Positions 2,299 through 55,125 of a stretch of 64,000 bases of DNA are shown piece by piece (position 1 is the first letter of the stretch; each line of letters begins with the position of its first letter). The notes below the pieces were generated by a model that was not told where the DNA came from, ran no database searches, and worked only from the letters and a program-made list of their open reading frames with translations. Source of the DNA: Bacillota bacterium (GTDB lineage: Bacteria; Bacillota; PH28-bin88); contig JBFLXH010000005.1 of NCBI GenBank assembly GCA_040757295.1, forward strand, positions 7,014 to 71,013, written 5' to 3'. The translations under genes and the position numbers were made by a program.

Positions 2299-3858
2299 CT
2301 ATTCCAAATCCATCTTTTTGGAGCTGTTTTCTTCCTTCATTTTGATAATGGTGTCAATTCGCAAAATGGCTTCAGAAACTTCAGCCGCCGTTTTTAACGC
2401 ATAAATCTTCACCAAGACAGGATCGGTAATACCAAGGGAATACATATTTGCCACTTCACCGGTGTCGCAATTAAGGGCAAAGGCCGGAGATTTATGCTCG
2501 GACTGGGCAGCCAGCACATCCCCCAGCTTTTCTAAGGGGTTAAAACCCGCATTGACTACAATCTGAGCAAAAGGCCTTTGCAGAGCTGTTACCACGCAAT
2601 CAACCCCATAAGCGGCCATTCCCCGCATTTCCGCTTTTACTCTTTCAACCTCCCTGGCAGCAGCCAGCTCAATGGATCCCCCGCCTGGCACAATGCCGGA
2701 TTTTACCGCGGCCTGGACTGAGGCAGCCGCATCTTTGGCGATCCGCTCACGTTCACCCACCACCTCTTCAGTGGCAGCTCCCACCAGAATGGTAGCCATG
2801 GGTTTGCCTGACCCGCCAATAATCCGGACATGCTCCAGTTTCTCGTCTAACAAGACCACTTTTGCAGACCCTAAGAATCTTGCTAATTCGGCAGGTGTCC
2901 TTCTTAAACCGGTGCGCTTGACGGCCCGAGCTCCCGTATGTTCTGCGGCCTTCACCAGTTCTTTGTGAGAAACCCGCTGGACCACCATTACTCCCGCATC
3001 AGTCAGCATTTCCTCTGCTTCGTCGTCCACCCCGCGGTCAACCAGTATTACCTTCACTCCGAGAGCAATGACTTTCTGCAGGTTTGACCTGAATTCTTCC
3101 CGCAGGGCAAGGTACCGCTGAAACCCTGTTTCGGTGGCCAAGGCTTCTTCCTCCACGGTCTCTGGTTCAAGGGCGTCATCTACAACCAGCACGGGTGCAT
3201 CAGTTACCTCCCGCGGCATATCCTTGTTCATAGTTTCTTTATTAATGATTAGTCCCTGAAAAACCATATTGGCTGCCGCAGCCTGGGCTACTACCGCTTC
3301 GGCCAACTGGAATTTGGGTTCCAACAGTTTTTCTTTGCCGATGAGCTTGGCGGCTTCCACTACCAGGTTAGCAATATCCTGGTACTCCCGTCCGGCAACC
3401 AAGGCAACCTCCAAGAGCCTGGGATCCTCTATTGTGTCTACAGGCTTTGCAACCTCATTAAAGTATTCGATGGCCCTTTTTACCCCTGCCCTGATCCCCT
3501 CGATTACCCGGGCCACAGGAACACCCTTAATCACCTGTTCCAAACCGCTGTTGACAAGGGCTCCGGCCATAATCGTGGTTGTAGTGGTGCCATCACCAAT
3601 CTCATCCTGTTGGGCTTTGGCGGCGTTGATCAGCATCCTGGCAGCAGGATGATTGACCTCCATCAAATTAAGGATGGTCACACCATCATTGGTAATGACC
3701 ACCTCGCCAAAGCGATCTACTAACATGGTATCCAAACCTTTAGGGCCGATGGTGCCTTCCACAGCCGAAGCAATCGCCCTAATGGCATTGGCATTGGTGA
3801 TAAGGGCGGCTAACCGCTCGTCTACCTCTGCGTTTTGGTTAACCTGTTTCACACTCAT
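2299..3858 (-). CDS. Group II-like (thermosome/TCP-1 type, bacterial 'group III') chaperonin, 519 aa
   Basis: GPKGLDTMLVD...VITNDGVTIL...NHPAARML...AKAQQDEIGDGTTTT matches the group II Cpn60/TCP-1 signature, not GroEL. Embedded between hrcA and grpE with a 26-nt gap to grpE and no separate terminator. Confidence 0.8.
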   Translation of the reverse strand: MSVKQVNQNAEVDERLAALITNANAIRAIASAVEGTIGPKGLDTMLVDRFGEVVITNDGVTILNLMEVNHPAARMLINAAKAQQDEIGDGTTTTTIMAGALVNSGLEQVIKGVPVARVIEGIRAGVKRAIEYFNEVAKPVDTIEDPRLLEVALVAGREYQDIANLVVEAAKLIGKEKLLEPKFQLAEAVVAQAAAANMVFQGLIINKETMNKDMPREVTDAPVLVVDDALEPETVEEEALATETGFQRYLALREEFRSNLQKVIALGVKVILVDRGVDDEAEEMLTDAGVMVVQRVSHKELVKAAEHTGARAVKRTGLRRTPAELARFLGSAKVVLLDEKLEHVRIIGGSGKPMATILVGAATEEVVGERERIAKDAAASVQAAVKSGIVPGGGSIELAAAREVERVKAEMRGMAAYGVDCVVTALQRPFAQIVVNAGFNPLEKLGDVLAAQSEHKSPAFALNCDTGEVANMYSLGITDPVLVKIYALKTAAEVSEAILRIDTIIKMKEENSSKKMDLE

Positions 3859-6221: not shown

Positions 6222-6437
6222 AAAAGCTCCCACTTTGCCGTTTACCGAGGGTTTCTGAACCTGCCCCAGCAGGTGGGTATCCTACCAGCAGCTTTTGTCT
6301 ACCGAGCAAAGTCGGCCTGACAGCCACTTCCGGACACGGATTCCCGTAGAAACGGTGTTGGTTCAAAACACAAACGGTTCAACACGAACATCGCAGGATA
6401 TAATCTTTTTTTGCCCTTCAATCTACCGGGCAAAGCT

Positions 6438-6499: not shown

Positions 6500-6908
6500 T
6501 CAGTAGTCAGACCCCCTCGCCGCCTATAGCGGCACCATCGAAAGAGGAAAATTTTATTTTCAGGGTAGAATTCAAAATACCTCGGGGGATAATCGGATGC
6601 ATTGGTGATTACCGGAGTAAAACATTACGGCGCATTAGTTCAAAGAGCGAAGAAGCCTGAGGATAAGCCGCAGCCGGTGTTTGAGGGCCTTTAGGCCCGA
6701 GTTCCAGTGCGGCATGAATACCCGCAAGGGGCAGGCCGTCCGGCTAAGGCGGCAAAGCCGCCAAGCCTCCCGCACGGCGACTGAGCTCGTTCGGGAATAA
6801 GAGCGCCGTCCTTTACGGAGGTAACACCAAGGCAGCCAAGCAGCTTTCCTAAAAACCTGGGGACTTCTTTCTCCCCTTCTGACTTCTGACTTCTGACCAC
6901 TGACTACT
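6500..6908 (+). repeat. Structured non-coding repeat element, copy A (~410 bp), abutting the lepA stop codon
   Basis: About 88% identical to the reverse complement of 43023-43460. Flanked by an inverted repeat (GTAGTCAG ... CTGACTAC) and by TTCTGAC x3 heptamers. Contains conserved hairpins (GGCGGC-AAA-GCCGCC, CCCGCAAGGG with a GNRA loop) and has no credible ORF. Confidence 0.6.
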
Positions 6909-8722: not shown

Positions 8723-8746
8723 TTTTTAGCTCCCTTCAAATTGCAT

Positions 8747-8775
8747 ACTTCAAACTATTATAGCATTCCCTGTTG
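8747..8775 (-). promoter_or_regulatory. SigA-type promoter upstream of lepA (-35 TTGTTC, 17 nt, -10 TATAAT)
   Basis: Minus-strand TTGTTC (8770-8775) and TATAAT (8747-8752), about 25 nt upstream of the lepA RBS. Confidence 0.5.
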
Positions 8776-8805
8776 AAGGGAACAACTTAGCTACAGATTT
8801 AAGAT

Positions 8806-8925
8806 AAAAGTACTACTAGGAGTCAGAAGTCAGGAGCCAGAATGAAAGAGCGGTTTATCGTCTCGGGGCATTTTTGAATTCTGTCTACTGACTTCTGAAT
8901 ACCTGAATAGTAACAGATAAAAAGT
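8806..8925. repeat. Short (~120 bp) member/fragment of the same repeat family, with imperfect terminal inverted repeats (GAGTCAGAAGTCAG ... CTGACTTCTGAAT)
   Basis: Matches one end of the 410-bp elements (AGGAGTCAGAA ... ATTTTTGAATTCTG ... CTGAATAGTAACAG). Sits 1 nt after the murJ stop. Confidence 0.5.
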
Positions 8926-17763: not shown

Positions 17764-17861
17764 GGCAATTCCTCCGTTCCTTTGTTAGGTAACATGTCTA
17801 CTGTTAATATTATCCCGAGGCTTCGCCTAATAGCAAGCCGCAGTTATTCAACTGGGTCTTG

Positions 17862-17983
17862 GCTTCAGCGGGGGATTGCTTCCCCCGCTGAGCTTAGAGC
17901 CAGTTAATACAGTGGCGTAGCCGCTCTTATCCCGCCGCTTGGAGAAGCGGGGGTATTAGAGCGGGTAGCCATCTGTGATAAAA
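17862..17983. repeat. GC-rich palindromic repeat units shared with 39036-39455 (second repeat family)
   Basis: 17862-17935 is the reverse complement of 39368-39455 (CTTCAGCGGGGG ... CCCCCGCTGA(A)GCTTAGAGCCAGTTAATACA ... GCGTAGCCGCTCTTA). 17956-17983 matches the reverse complement of 39036-39063. Confidence 0.5.
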
Positions 17984-18028
17984 AGCCGGGTTTTCCTAAA
18001 GCCTGAGGAATTGATCCGAGACAAACCC

Positions 18029-20736: not shown

Positions 20737-20913
20737 GCAAAACAAAACGCCTCTCCTATGACAAGAAGAGGCATGAAAACTTATCCTCCTCTTATCTCTC
20801 AGGAATAACCTGCAGGAATTGGCACCAATTCAAATAATCACGGCTATGCGGCCATCAATTCGAACGGTTGCCGGGCTTCATCGGGCCAGTCCCTCCACCT
20901 CTCTAGATAAGAG
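20737..20913 (-). ncRNA. SAM-I (S-box) riboswitch with intrinsic terminator, upstream of metY
   Basis: Minus strand reads CUCUUAUCUAGAGAGGUGGAGGGACUGGCCCGAUGAAGCCCGGCAACC ... GGUGCCAAUUCCUGCAGG ... GAGAGAUAAGAG, the canonical S-box core. It is followed by a GCCUCU ... AGAGGC hairpin + GUUUUGUUUUGC. Confidence 0.85.
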
Positions 20914-23583: not shown

Positions 23584-23870
23584 ATGCCTAGCCGAAAAAC
23601 AATTTGCTAGGTTGGGCAGACCGGTGATCGGAAGATGCCTCCACCTACCAGATGTGCTCCTAGCTACCGTCAGGAGGGATATGCCCATTACCGGGTCGTT
23701 GTCCATTCCTCTTCACTCGCGCCGCCGGTTATAACCCTGCCAGGCCGGAAGGCTAACCCCGGTACGCCTCCCGTCGATGCTTTACATGCAGGACGTAGAG
23801 GAGGCCCTTTTCCCGGTCAAAACGTAGGATAACCCGCCAGTCACCAACTCTGTATCGCCATATGTCCGCA
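23584..23870. repeat. 287-bp direct repeat, copy 1 (covers the last ~40 codons of the RelE-like toxin gene plus ~170 bp downstream)
   Basis: Near-identical to 25345-25629 except for one ~50-bp divergent patch. Confidence 0.7.
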
Positions 23871-25344: not shown

Positions 25345-25629
25345 GATGCCTAGCCGAAAAACAATTTGCTAGGTTGGGCAGACCGGTGATCGGAAGATGC
25401 CTCCACCTACCAGATGTGCTCCTACTACCGCCAGGGGGGATTGCCAATTATCGTTTGGTCGTTGTCCATTCCTCTTCACTCGCACCGGTTATAACCCTGC
25501 CAGGCCGGAAGGCTAACCCCGGTACGCCTCCCGTCGATGCTTCACATGCAGGACGTAGAGGAGGCCCTTTTCCCGGTCAAACGTAGGATAACCCGCCAGT
25601 CACCAACTCTATACCGCCATATGTCCGCA
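25345..25629. repeat. 287-bp direct repeat, copy 2 (contains a frameshifted relic of the RelE-like 3' end)
   Basis: Same sequence as copy 1. The toxin-derived part lacks one T (CGTTTGACC vs CGTTTTGACC), giving a premature stop. ORFs 25163-25447 and 25296-25586 inside it are not credible. Confidence 0.7.
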
Positions 25630-31394: not shown

Positions 31395-31493
31395 CCACGT
31401 ATTTATCCATAGTCTATCAATACTCGTGATTTCTCATAACCAATACTTCTTAAAAGGTTAGTCATAATGTTCAGGTTGCAGGATCCTACTGAA

Positions 31494-31522
31494 TTCTGAA
31501 TACCTGAATAGTAACAAACTCC
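31494..31522. repeat. 29-bp fragment of the 410-bp repeat family end motif (CTGAATTCTGAATACCTGAATAGTAACA)
   Basis: Matches 8895-8920 and the reverse complement of 43425-43460. Confidence 0.35.
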
Positions 31523-37695: not shown

Positions 37696-37965
37696 AAAAG
37701 AAAAACCTCCCGCCCCATGCCTTGGGACGGGAAGTTTTATTTCCCGCGTTACCACCCAAATTGGTAATAATAAGTAATCATTACTACCCTCTCAAGGTTT
37801 ATTAACGGCAACCAGCCGGCACAGGTTAAAAATTCACCTGCACAGCTCCCGGGCGAGTTCAGCGGGCTTCCTGCTGTTTTTCACCATCCAACAGCTCTCT
37901 GATAAAGCTGACCCAGCCTAATGCTCCCGTTCACTGCTTTTCCCATTAGTTGATTAATAATTAAC
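37696..37965 (-). ncRNA. T-box riboswitch leader (Leu, specifier CUC region) with intrinsic terminator, upstream of leuS
   Basis: The T-box sequence AAUUUGGGUGGUAACGCGG is the reverse complement of 37746-37763. It is followed by the terminator CUUCCCGUCCC ... GGGGCGGGAGG + U-run. Stem I contains AGAGA and GAACUCGCC. Confidence 0.7.
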
Positions 37966-39008: not shown

Positions 39009-39035
39009 TTGGCTCTCTCCCGACAACAAAAACCC

Positions 39036-39460
39036 CCTATTTATCACAGATGGCTACCCGCTCTAAGGAACGGGGACACACCGCTTACAAATCGCTCTTG
39101 CCGCAGAAGCACTCTAAAGTTAAGGTTACAGGGGACATGTCTACCGCATTCATCCTTAACGCGGAATGTCCCCAACGCGTTCGCTTCTTTAAAGCGGCGG
39201 GATATGCTCGGCATGAAATTCGCTTTGAGGCCACATTTAATCAAGGAATAATTGGTGGCCTCGCTCATTATATGCTCGGCGAGGAATAAAATTTGATTAC
39301 AGTCAATGAAGCCGAGCATGAAATTCGCTTTGAGGCCACATTTAATCAAGGAATAATTGGTGGCCTCGCTCATTTTAAGAGCGGCTACGCCATTGTATTA
39401 ACTGGCTCTAAGCTTCAGCGGGGGTAGCAATCCCCCGCTGAAGCTTAGAGCCAGTTGAAG
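39036..39460. repeat. Repeat-dense non-coding region: two tandem 63-bp direct repeats (39206-39268, 39311-39373) each with an 8-bp-stem hairpin, plus a 21-bp-arm perfect palindrome (39402-39450)
   Basis: GAGGCCAC-N20-GTGGCCTC units, and GGCTCTAAGCTTCAGCGGGGG-tagcaat-CCCCCGCTGAAGCTTAGAGCC. Homologous units occur at 17862-17983 and 55025-55125. ORF 39044-39373 is an artefact of the tandem repeat. Confidence 0.55.
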
Positions 39461-42993: not shown

Positions 42994-43022
42994 CTACACC
43001 CACCTCATTAAATTAGGTAGTC

Positions 43023-43460
43023 AGAATTCAGCACTTAGTATTCAGAATTTTTCACGCAACCGTCCTCCCATTCTGACTCCTGCCCTGAAAATAAAATTTC
43101 CTGTTAGGTTTTTAAAGGCTACTTGACTGCCTTGGTGTTACCTCTGTAAACGACGGCGCTCTTATTCCTGAACGAGCTCGGTCACCGTGCGGGAGACTTG
43201 GCGGCTTTGCCGCCTTAGTCGGACGGTCTACCCCTTGCGGGTATTCGGGACGCACCGGAACCCGGGCCTACGGCCCTCAAACACCGGCTGCGTCTAATCC
43301 TCAGGTTCCTCGCTCTTTGAACTTAAGCGCCGTAATGTTTACTTCCGGTAATCACCAATGCATCCTAGTTTGAAAATACAATTTTCCTCGCCTGATGGTG
43401 CCGCCATAGGCGGCATGGGGGTCTGACTCCTGTTACTTATTAGGTAGTCGGAATTCAGCA
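43023..43460 (-). repeat. Structured non-coding repeat element, copy B (~440 bp, inverted relative to copy A), bounded by 22-bp direct repeats TTAGGTAGTC(A/G)GAATTCAGCAC
   Basis: The reverse complement aligns with 6500-6908 at ~88%, with loop-only and compensatory-looking changes around conserved hairpins. It lies between the yhbY 3' end and the proB RBS. Confidence 0.6.
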
Positions 43461-43854
43461 CCCAAGACAGGAGAACCGTCCCCTTGTCTCCGGCCAGCAC
43501 CCAAGACAGGAGAACCGTCCCCTTGTCTATTCGGCCAGCACCCAAGACAGGAGAACCGTCCCCTTGTCTATTCTGCGGTTTTTTCTTGGAAGGCCGGTAA
43601 AAAAGAAGGGTGCGGCCAATAACCTGCACCAGGTCCGCGCCGGTACCCTGAGCCAGATCAACCGCCACTTGTTCAGTTTCTTCTTCGCAGTTTTGCAGGA
43701 CCTTAGCCTTCACCAATTCCCTGGCCTCCAGGGCCTCGTCCAATTGGCGCAAGACATTGTCATTAAGCCCGCCCTTGCCCACCTGAACGATTGCCTCCAG
43801 GCTCGTCCCCATGGCTCTTAAATAGCGCTTCTGTTTTCCGCTTAAGGCTGCCAT
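43339..43854 (-). CDS. yhbY: Ribosome-assembly RNA-binding protein YhbY (CRS1/YhbY domain) with an aberrant ~75-aa C-terminal extension read through the tandem repeat into repeat element B
   Basis: Residues 1-95 (MAALSGKQKRYLRAMG ... LVQVIGRTLLFYRPSKKKPQ) form a complete YhbY domain. No stop follows. Translation continues through the repeat units (giving DKGTVLLSWVL twice) and ends at a TAA inside element B (43339). ATG at 43852-43854 lies 6 nt after GGGGAGG. Confidence 0.6.
   Translation of the reverse strand: MAALSGKQKRYLRAMGTSLEAIVQVGKGGLNDNVLRQLDEALEARELVKAKVLQNCEEETEQVAVDLAQGTGADLVQVIGRTLLFYRPSKKKPQNRQGDGSPVLGAGRIDKGTVLLSWVLAGDKGTVLLSWVLNSDYLISNRSQTPMPPMAAPSGEENCIFKLGCIGDYRK
43459..43578. 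repeat. Tandem direct repeat, 3 units of 39-41 bp (CACCCAAGACAGGAGAACCGTCCCCTTGTCT(ATT)CGGCCAG), each with an internal hairpin
   Basis: Read directly. No spacers between units, so this is not a CRISPR array. Confidence 0.65.
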
Positions 43855-45149: not shown

Positions 45150-45286
45150 ATACTATTCACCTTCAAATAACAATTTACCAGCCCTTAATAAAACTATTTG
45201 ACTGCCTTGGGGTTTGTCGCTAGCTAATATTCTTATTTATGTTTTCCAATGTGGGTTTATTGCAATCCTGGCCAGGTGAGATTCAA

Positions 45287-54985: not shown

Positions 54986-55024
54986 TTTATCCCTCCTCCA
55001 ATTTATCTTATAATGAGCAAGGCC

Positions 55025-55125
55025 ACTAATTATTCATTGATTTGCCGTGGCCTCAAAGCGAATTTCATACTCGGCTTCATTATGATAATGCAATTTTATC
55101 CCTTGCCGAGTATATCATAATTATT
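55025..55125. repeat. Inverted copy of the 63-bp hairpin repeat seen at 39206-39373
   Basis: The reverse complement reads AATGAAGCCGAGTATGAAATTCGCTTTGAGGCCAC ... AATAATTAGTGGCCTT. Confidence 0.45.

Follow-up and report, generated by a model that had tools for sequence, protein, structure and literature searches.

The window analysed in this study, a 64,000-nucleotide (nt) stretch of a Bacillota genome of the PH28_bin88 lineage, carries two diverged copies of a non-coding, hairpin-rich element, copy A in the gap between lepA and hemW and copy B in the gap between yhbY and proB. By use of a repeat finder and BLAST, the core of copy A (6595-6858, + strand) was aligned to copy B (43365-43106, - strand) with 88.6% identity over 264 nt (E 3e-84), and an arm of copy A (6501-6562) was aligned to copy B (43432-43371) with 85.5% identity. 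The first-pass annotation, made from the sequence alone, had described two inverted copies of about 410 nt with about 88% identity; the number of copies, their orientation and their identity held, but the collinear homology covers about 326 nt, i.e., the 62-nt arm plus the 264-nt core (window 6501-6858, + strand; 43106-43432, - strand), and not 410-440 nt. Copy A includes 27 extra nt (6568-6594) that form a gap in the A/B alignment, and the outer 50-90 nt are arranged differently in the two copies. The boundaries proposed for copy A are indeed present, namely the inverted pair GTAGTCAG (6503-6510) and CTGACTAC (6900-6907), only 8 nt in length, and the array of TTCTGAC heptamers (6876-6905). 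Its proposed span is adjacent to lepA as stated, but takes in a terminator-like hairpin (6876-6859, - strand), followed by a T-run, that lies just downstream of lepA. The direct repeats said to bound copy B over 22 bp were found as 23-nt repeats (43012-43034 and 43439-43461, 95.7% identical), and the ends of this copy are in direct order, not inverted.

Both copies are recent insertions, and the same loci are empty in close relatives. The lepA-hemW gap measures 757 nt in the window versus 0 nt in the relatives L162, L163 and L164 (LepA 93% identical), 41 nt in L165 (LepA 91%) and 162 nt in L167 (85%), while the yhbY-proB gap is about 590 nt in the window versus 81 nt in L170 (ProB 89% identical). 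The core is absent from all the relatives' loci examined. The covariance model R1, representing the apex of the core, detected only the two copies within the window and one in L066, and none in the relatives' loci.

The apex of the core is a unit of about 59 nt composed of two hairpins, P2 and P3 (hereafter the module), and this module is a mobile, precise insertion. We defined a filled/empty pair as a module with 18-nt flanks on either side that match a module-free site among the fetched loci. A total of 21 such pairs were found: in 17, the insert measures 56-57 nt and the empty site has no base left over, and in the remaining 4 it is 59-67 nt and replaces 3-8 bases. Neither a fixed target word nor a target duplication was detected in these pairs; the left flanks end in GAG, CAA, AAT, TTTT, GTC, TGT or GCG, and the end of the left flank shares only 1-4 nt (AG, GCAA, TC, GCG, T) with the 3' end of the insert. 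Hairpin loops make up most of the targets, with the insert typically located just ahead of the 3' strand of the stem. The targets include palindromes that end in CCCTAC and resemble repetitive extragenic palindromic (REP) sequences, such as GGGCCGCCGAG^GGCGGCGGCCCCTAC (L111, L031, L060 and L124; ^, point of insertion) and GGGCGCACAAT^GTGCGCCC (L042), other hairpins (L030 compared with L074; L052), and the P2 loop of the module itself, ACCCGCAA^GGGG, in three copies (L036 compared with L050 and L083). A looser screen added L024 and L104, the latter belonging to the Sulfuricella group.

The insertion sequence (IS) gene istB of IS21 was also found to be a target. In L056 this gene contains two 56-nt module inserts (3064-3119 and 3184-3240), and removal of 56 nt at each site gives an open frame for a 265-amino-acid (aa) protein that matches the whole Pfam profile IstB_IS21 with 279.5 bits. 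In a second genome, L041, istB carries an insert at one of these sites (1383-1440) and the other site is empty. After removal of the inserts, the two istB genes show 59 synonymous and 10 non-synonymous codon differences; the insert common to both differs at 1 of 56 nt. This shared insert might represent independent hits at one site, or else the function of the gene might survive the insert, and an ATG preceded by GGGGAG directly after the insert counts toward the latter. In a screen for reading frames restored by removal of the module, the hits other than istB, among them the alaS 5' region and the ftsL-ftsI spacer, were rejected as artefacts, since GC-rich DNA contains long frames free of stops.

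The module had been traced with a 16-mer of P2 to a viral contig in which 47-49 nt agree with the element. A pattern scan with CCGCAAGG-N12-30-GCGGCAAAGCCGC then gave at least 120 loci in genomes and 15 in viral sequences; exact words were required, and the search pattern fixes the core of P2 and the upper stem of P3. Among the matches listed, about 95 distinct copies lie outside the window, mainly in Oscillospiraceae, with a single copy in the PH28_bin88 relative L066. A diverged group occurs in Sulfuricella and Sulfurisoma, ten records of uncultured human-gut phages carry the module, and a Parageobacillus plasmid carries a P3 variant with a covarying upper stem (GGCGAC-GGA-GUCGCC). The modules in other genomes are 82-87% identical to that of copy A, and the stretch common to the window element and other genomes is limited to about 60 nt. 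In an alignment of 94 distinct sequences, 93.9% of the stem cells are paired, as against 30-51% when the partners are slid. Changes on both sides of a pair were found in 125 cells versus 24 in shuffles, a level reached in 0 of 500 shuffles; 9 of the 15 P3 pairs show changes on both sides, with examples in the lower stem such as GCAUCCGU/ACGGCUGC, AUAGCUCU/AGAGCUAU and AAAAUUCU/AGAAUUUU.

Two kinds of module-related loci were noted besides. One IMG/VR contig of 12 kb (L024) has four module copies. Both L024 and L140 have a pair of open reading frames (ORFs) about 350 nt downstream of a module, which from their sequence resemble the small and large terminase subunits. In the termite-gut metagenome loci L151, L155 and L161, a P3 hairpin, CTAAGGCGGCAAAGCCGCCAAG, is located without P2 in a different repeat of about 200 nt, bounded by GACTACCCCGGAAAG and its near-complement (T/A)TTCCGGGGTAGTC. 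A metagenome scan for the P3 22-mer yielded 14 loci, none of them with the core.

As to the element as a whole, the predicted fold is a long imperfect palindrome, in which the closing stem (Table 1) is followed by further stem segments leading to a branched apex: a first hairpin, GCCGCAGCC...GGGCC-UUUA-GGCCC...UGCGGC, next P2, and next P3 with its lower extension. The z-scores of folding against shuffled sequences range from -3.6 to -5.9 for both strands of both copies. The two hairpins that had been described as conserved, CCCGCAAGGG and GGCGGC-AAA-GCCGCC, occur in both copies. The two-copy consensus structure contains 68 pairs with 4 double compensatory changes, one change from G-C to G-U and no broken pair (P=0.00035), an estimate that is partly circular. 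When the structure predicted from copy A only was applied to copy B, 5 pairs were broken versus 12.3 expected from random substitutions (P=0.004); in addition, we counted 2 compensatory changes and 4 changes on one side of a pair that preserve it. In these predicted structures, base pairing is therefore maintained between A and B, but less cleanly than first proposed: fewer pairs are broken than at random, yet not every substitution keeps its pair.

The outer layer of the element belongs to a short repeat with the ends (C/T)AG(T/G)AGTCAGA...TCTGACTAC, in which the number of AGTCAGA heptamers varies and which also exists alone; AGTCAGA was observed 11 times versus 3.8 expected. Pieces previously listed as partial members of the element turned out to be this separate, heptamer-built repeat (8818-8917 and 31486-31516), and a third, at 45194-45214, is a 21-nt match at chance level (E=0.11). 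The 23-nt direct repeats of copy B resemble the short repeat standing alone at 8885 and 31486, and the right-hand one constitutes the final 23 nt of a short repeat, termed 'mini', that follows directly after the copy B core. The 27-nt segment specific to copy A is part of a stretch (6549-6578) with an 87% match to 43099-43070. In the obg-proB spacer of the relative L168 we identified a short element, CAGTAGTCAGACCCCC...TATTCTGAATTC...GTCTGACTGGCTAAT, the ends of which match the window elements and the 8818-8917 repeat; the first 17 nt of the copy A left arm are found there on their own. The terminal repeats of this L168 mini, GTAGTCAGAC...GTCTGACTGGC, agree with the ends of the mini in the window. 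The PH28_bin88 locus L167 carries right after the lepA stop (1955-2080) a heptamer palindrome, in which AAGCAGG/AGGCAAG repeats face their reverse complements, suggesting that heptamer-ended hairpin repeats behind lepA are a habit of this clade.

Table 1. Parts of the two copies and related repeats (positions in the window)
Feature	Position	Strand	Remarks
Copy A left arm	6501-6567	+	starts CAGTAGTCAGACCCCC; contains hairpin GCCGCC-TATA-GCGGC
Copy A-only 27-nt segment	6568-6594	+	TAGAATTCAAAATACCTCGGGGGATAATC; similar to the beginning of the mini behind the copy B core
Copy A core, 264 nt	6595-6858	+	long imperfect palindrome with branched apex; closing stem TGCATTGGTGATTACC / GGTAACACCAAGGCA
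Copy A apex module	6719-6777	+	P2 CCCGCAAGGG and P3 GGCUAAGGCGGCAAAGCCGCCAAGCC with extended lower stem; 65.1 bits with R1, itself among the training members
Copy A right flank	6859-6907	.	terminator-like hairpin, heptamer array (CTTCTGA)x4.3, terminal CTGACTAC
Copy B core	43106-43365	-	
Copy B left arm	43371-43432	-	starts CAGGAGTCAGACCCCC
Copy B apex module	43185-43243	-	62.2 bits with R1, itself a training member
Mini, short heptamer-ended repeat after copy B core	43012-43082	-	CAGGAGTCAGAATGGGAGG...TTCTGAATAC...CTGACTACCTAAT
Copy B left-hand 23-nt direct repeat	43439-43461	-	GTGCTGAATTCCGACTACCTAAT; 95.7% identity to 43012-43034
Stand-alone short repeat, same heptamer family, coreless	8818-8917	+	(AGTCAGA)x3...TTCTGAATACCTGAATAGTAACAG
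Short repeat, solo end-piece	31486-31516	+	97% identity to 8885-8915

The neighboring genes differ from those of the relatives at three places. First, the extra 757-nt lepA-hemW block contains, in addition to the element, a 6S RNA gene (6223-6402, - strand; Rfam, 87.4 bits) 98 nt from copy A, which the first-pass annotation had overlooked. Associated with this gene are a promoter-like site close to the consensus, TTGACA-18-TATGAT (6467-6438), and, at 6221-6203, a hairpin resembling a terminator. No 6S gene was found at the relatives' lepA-hemW loci, and it seems that the gene reached this locus together with the repeat in this lineage. Second, copy B had been placed behind a stop codon, but it does not lie behind one, because the yhbY frame has lost its stop and continues from 43869 to 43339 into copy B. 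In L170, yhbY ends with TAG, followed by a single hairpin (2309-2335) and, 81 nt on, by the proB start. In the window a 41-nt unit is repeated 2.9 times (43456-43573), each unit with the hairpin GACAAGGGGACGGTTCTCCTGTC that L170 has singly; this expansion removed the stop, so that the frame extends to 176 aa. NCBI annotates no gene in the obg-proB interval. Third, between murJ and lepA, the relatives L162 (9323-9976) and L165 (8738-9391) have a gene for a 217-aa glycosyltransferase, together with a TrpBP gene in L165. In its place the window has only a 203-nt spacer (8723-8925) that holds the stand-alone short repeat. A Logan contig from the same sample ends inside this spacer, about 160 nt upstream of lepA.

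Elsewhere in the window, intergenic repeats rich in hairpins form another family, unrelated to the first, at 17847-17994, 39028-39460 and 55006-55081. Among its parts are AACTGGCTCTAAGCTTCAGCGGGGG...CCCCCGCTGAAGCTTAGAGCCAGTT, which makes a perfect 25-nt hairpin at 39400-39456, and a unit of 70 nt found at 39211, at 39316 and, inverted, at 55006. Two copies of a block of about 290 nt (23584-23870 and 25346-25629, 88-100% identical), separated by 1.76 kb, bracket toxin-antitoxin genes (ParE-like, nucleotidyltransferase/HEPN), with a PIN and PhdYeFM pair adjoining. Two further matches to Rfam 15, a T-box leader (37720-37943, - strand, 127.5 bits) and a SAM-I riboswitch (20789-20913, - strand, 86.7 bits), are both ordinary for the phylum.

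On balance, and with modest confidence, we consider A and B to be diverged copies of a lineage-specific non-coding composite of nested palindromic mobile DNA, similar in kind to miniature inverted-repeat transposable elements (MITEs) and REP sequences. The suggestion of a MITE-like mobile family, already made in the first-pass annotation, gains from the empty sites in relatives, from the short terminal repeats that also occur solo and from the precise insertion of the module at 21 other sites. The composite would consist of an outer layer, the short heptamer-ended repeat; a cargo, the 62-nt arm plus the 264-nt long imperfect palindrome; and, at the palindrome apex, the two-hairpin micro-element of about 59 nt that elsewhere is a 56-57-nt insertion mostly into hairpin loops. 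Palindromes nested in hairpin loops would automatically yield a multi-branch, RNA-like fold. As the module occupies the same place in both copies, it would have entered before the composite was copied. The units may move in the form of folded single strands of nucleic acid, acted on by an enzyme whose gene lies elsewhere; an HUH/Y1-type single-strand DNA transposase is one candidate. The pairing may be kept either by a need of folding for spread or by template switching through which the palindrome arms correct each other. The effects on the host, such as the terminator-like hairpin after lepA, the longer yhbY frame, the missing glycosyltransferase gene and the assembly breaks at repeats, would then be incidental.

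A structured non-coding RNA (ncRNA), whether from a trans-acting gene family or encoded by the element itself (e.g., of guide or scaffold type) and carried on a mobile repeat, appears unlikely, although it is favored by the elaborate fold, far more stable than shuffled sequences, by the 4 compensatory changes without a broken pair on the partly circular two-copy consensus, by a GNRA tetraloop beside a conserved A-rich internal loop in the parallel hairpin, similar to a tetraloop and its receptor, and by the presence of the 6S RNA gene within the same inserted block. The first-pass annotation had proposed selection on RNA structure and, as one option, a dispersed ncRNA family, and neither is borne out. 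Within the module stems, G·U pairs number 14 versus 18 A·C (the misaligned Sulfuricella group excluded), giving no G·U excess. The orientation of the module relative to the flanking ORFs is random (++ 8, +- 9, -+ 6, -- 5; 28 scorable sites), and the two window copies are themselves oppositely oriented relative to their neighboring genes. No promoter or terminator common to both window copies was detected, full copies number only two, both strands fold equally, and the pairing is equally well kept on either strand. CTAC is found within 35 nt downstream of the module at 24 of 96 sites versus 4-7 in controls, indicating that the module is oriented relative to the host palindrome and not to genes. 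In addition, it lands within an ORF and within other repeats. Structure that matters in DNA or on either strand is therefore a better fit than a one-strand RNA.

In agreement with the earlier statement that no known RNA family is present, the Infernal-type check against Rfam 15 gave no match at the gathering level on either copy; at E<=10 only four weak matches of 11-15 bits (E 2-7) appeared, at the level of chance. No Rfam match was obtained on 12 module-bearing loci from other genomes, and the families without a match include 6S, RNase P, tmRNA, SRP, riboswitches, group I and II introns, hammerhead, HEARO and the IS605-orfB motifs. A hammerhead ribozyme (CUGAGGA...GAA at the first apex hairpin) was rejected by inspection: it would have extra unpaired bases and, at position 15.1, U rather than A, and it has no Rfam hammerhead match. 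We also rejected a group I or group II intron, for which the GUGYG start, domain V, the conserved terminal G and an Rfam match are all lacking. The absence of a credible ORF was also confirmed, in that no start-to-stop ORF is common to both copies. Both share one frame that stays open over about 50 codons but lacks a start codon in copy B; no relative of the translated frame turned up among 5.8 billion proteins. We accordingly rejected a protein-coding gene, for want of a common start codon and of a protein homologue.

Action in cis on neighboring mRNAs, in which the transcribed element would be retained by the host as a terminator, 3' stabilizer or processing site, is improbable. Functions of this kind have been suggested for REP, ERIC and Correia elements, and according to PMC3733652 transcription of REP-type repeats is frequent. 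Copy A is located directly behind the lepA stop, with a hairpin and T-run adjoining on the lepA strand, and both copies as well as the stand-alone short repeat are situated at gene 3' ends. The terminator-like hairpin, however, is outside the conserved core, the same strand of copy B is antisense to yhbY and proB, the relatives lack the element at both loci, and the module is randomly oriented with respect to genes. Finally, a passive relic of one segmental duplication, immobile and unconstrained, would account for the finding of only two copies, but it is very improbable in view of the empty sites in relatives, the unrelated flanking genes, the far fewer broken pairs than expected at 12% divergence and the mobility of the central module elsewhere.

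Several observations weigh against the composite of nested mobile palindromes. Nesting is demonstrated for the innermost module only, the outer layers being inferred from anatomy. There is no clear target-site duplication at copy A, and the 23-nt direct repeats of copy B may be merely two copies of the short repeat. Full copies number two within about 79 kb of this genome and none elsewhere in the scans: the further 14.6 kb of the source contig gave no extra full copy, BLAST of copy A against the phage and plasmid collections gave only a chance match of 59 nt, and three viral scans with core words gave chance matches only. No transposase, reverse transcriptase or HUH gene is present among the Pfam-annotated genes of about 79 kb of the contig, and no protein recurs near 106 module sites elsewhere. 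The GCAA tetraloop together with the A-rich internal loop (U-AA / A) has the look of an RNA tertiary contact, and this internal loop, which lies outside the fixed search pattern, is kept in the variant of the Parageobacillus plasmid. The wobble and orientation tests, for their part, rest on small counts.

A bolder proposal, which we advance tentatively as a possibility short of probable, is that the two-hairpin module of about 56 nt (P2 CCCGCAAGGG plus P3 ..CCGUAAGGCGGCAAAGCCGCCAACGG..) represents an undescribed class of ultra-small mobile element; literature searches by sequence words and by topic gave no description of the motif. If this is correct, the module would insert precisely, mostly at hairpin apices including its own loop, into REP-like palindromes and an IS21 gene; it would have spread over Clostridia, catalogued phage contigs and some Betaproteobacteria; its mover would be an enzyme or RNA-based mechanism yet to be found; and the 330-nt window element would be the largest composite built round it.

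These findings bear on annotation practice. An ornate, covarying multi-branch fold can come from palindromic repeats nested in each other's loops, so that such a fold need not mark an RNA gene, and tests of wobble bias and orientation help to separate an RNA gene from nested DNA palindromes. The way in which very small palindromic repeats move is a long-standing question, for which the module supplies clean filled/empty pairs and an istB gene with two inserts that still shows purifying selection between two genomes; both could help in finding the mechanism. Repeats have reshaped the loci described here, as seen in the 757-nt lepA-hemW block, the loss of the yhbY stop and the missing glycosyltransferase gene.

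In comparison with known systems, the element shares with REP, BIME and REPIN elements the character of short, multi-copy intergenic palindromes that are present or absent between close relatives and are clustered and nested; Di Nocera et al. (PMC3733652) describe REPs inserted inside other palindromes. The module of Oscillospiraceae and PH28_bin88 is likewise located within or beside palindromes ending in CCCTAC (GTAG on the other strand). Unlike REP, however, it has no GTAG head of its own and consists of two dissimilar hairpins, and the window element is about 10 times longer. Neither the window element nor the module bears the REP tag, GTAG or CGTC next to a 20-40-nt palindrome, whereas the Oscillospiraceae host palindromes are often tagged; in copy A, 14 nt separate GTAG from the arm hairpin, and in copy B the tetramer reads GGAG. 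A gene for a REP-associated tyrosine transposase (RAYT; Y1/HUH) was not found near any copy among the Pfam matches of the called genes in the contig stretch read.

ERIC/IRU, Correia, BOX, RUP and the Bacillus cereus bcr1 repeats are of MITE type and fold when transcribed. The window element resembles these repeats in being non-coding, 100-400 nt in length, with a long stem, inserted adjacent to genes and accompanied by deleted mini forms. It differs from ERIC-type MITEs in its inverted ends of only 8-11 nt, built of heptamers, in the lack of a clear target-site duplication, and in an apex with an independently mobile micro-element, and it has no known parent insertion sequence. Non-autonomous elements of the IS200/IS605 group (palindrome-associated transposable elements, PATEs) have like hairpins at their ends and insert 3' of a fixed target of 4-5 nt. 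The module is similar to IS200/IS605 in its precise insertion without target-site duplication (17 of 21 pairs, and the restored istB frame), and to PATEs in the hairpin near each end and in a probable dependence on hairpins in single-stranded DNA; it is unlike them in that P2 and P3 differ in sequence and length and no fixed target word is seen. With OLE, GOLLD, ROOL, raiA and HEARO/omega RNA the element has in common a length of 260-330 nt, a multi-way junction, a GNRA loop and an association with mobile DNA, but it differs from them in having no Rfam match at E<=10 above chance, no conserved neighborhood, no strand signal, and two copies in one genome.

The cyanobacterial SDR and STRR heptamer repeats (Elhai et al. 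2008, Genome Res 18:1484) are cited in PMC3116915 and PMC2884548. Unlike SDR, the module is 56-57 nt long with two hairpins, is hosted by Bacillota and Betaproteobacteria, and shares no sequence similarity. Cyanobacterial SDRs are reportedly about 20-27 nt long, nested in other hairpin-forming repeats and thought to be mobile, and no enzyme is known that moves them. Among all the systems compared, it is SDR that the module is most like, and the heptamers at the repeat ends are like STRR.

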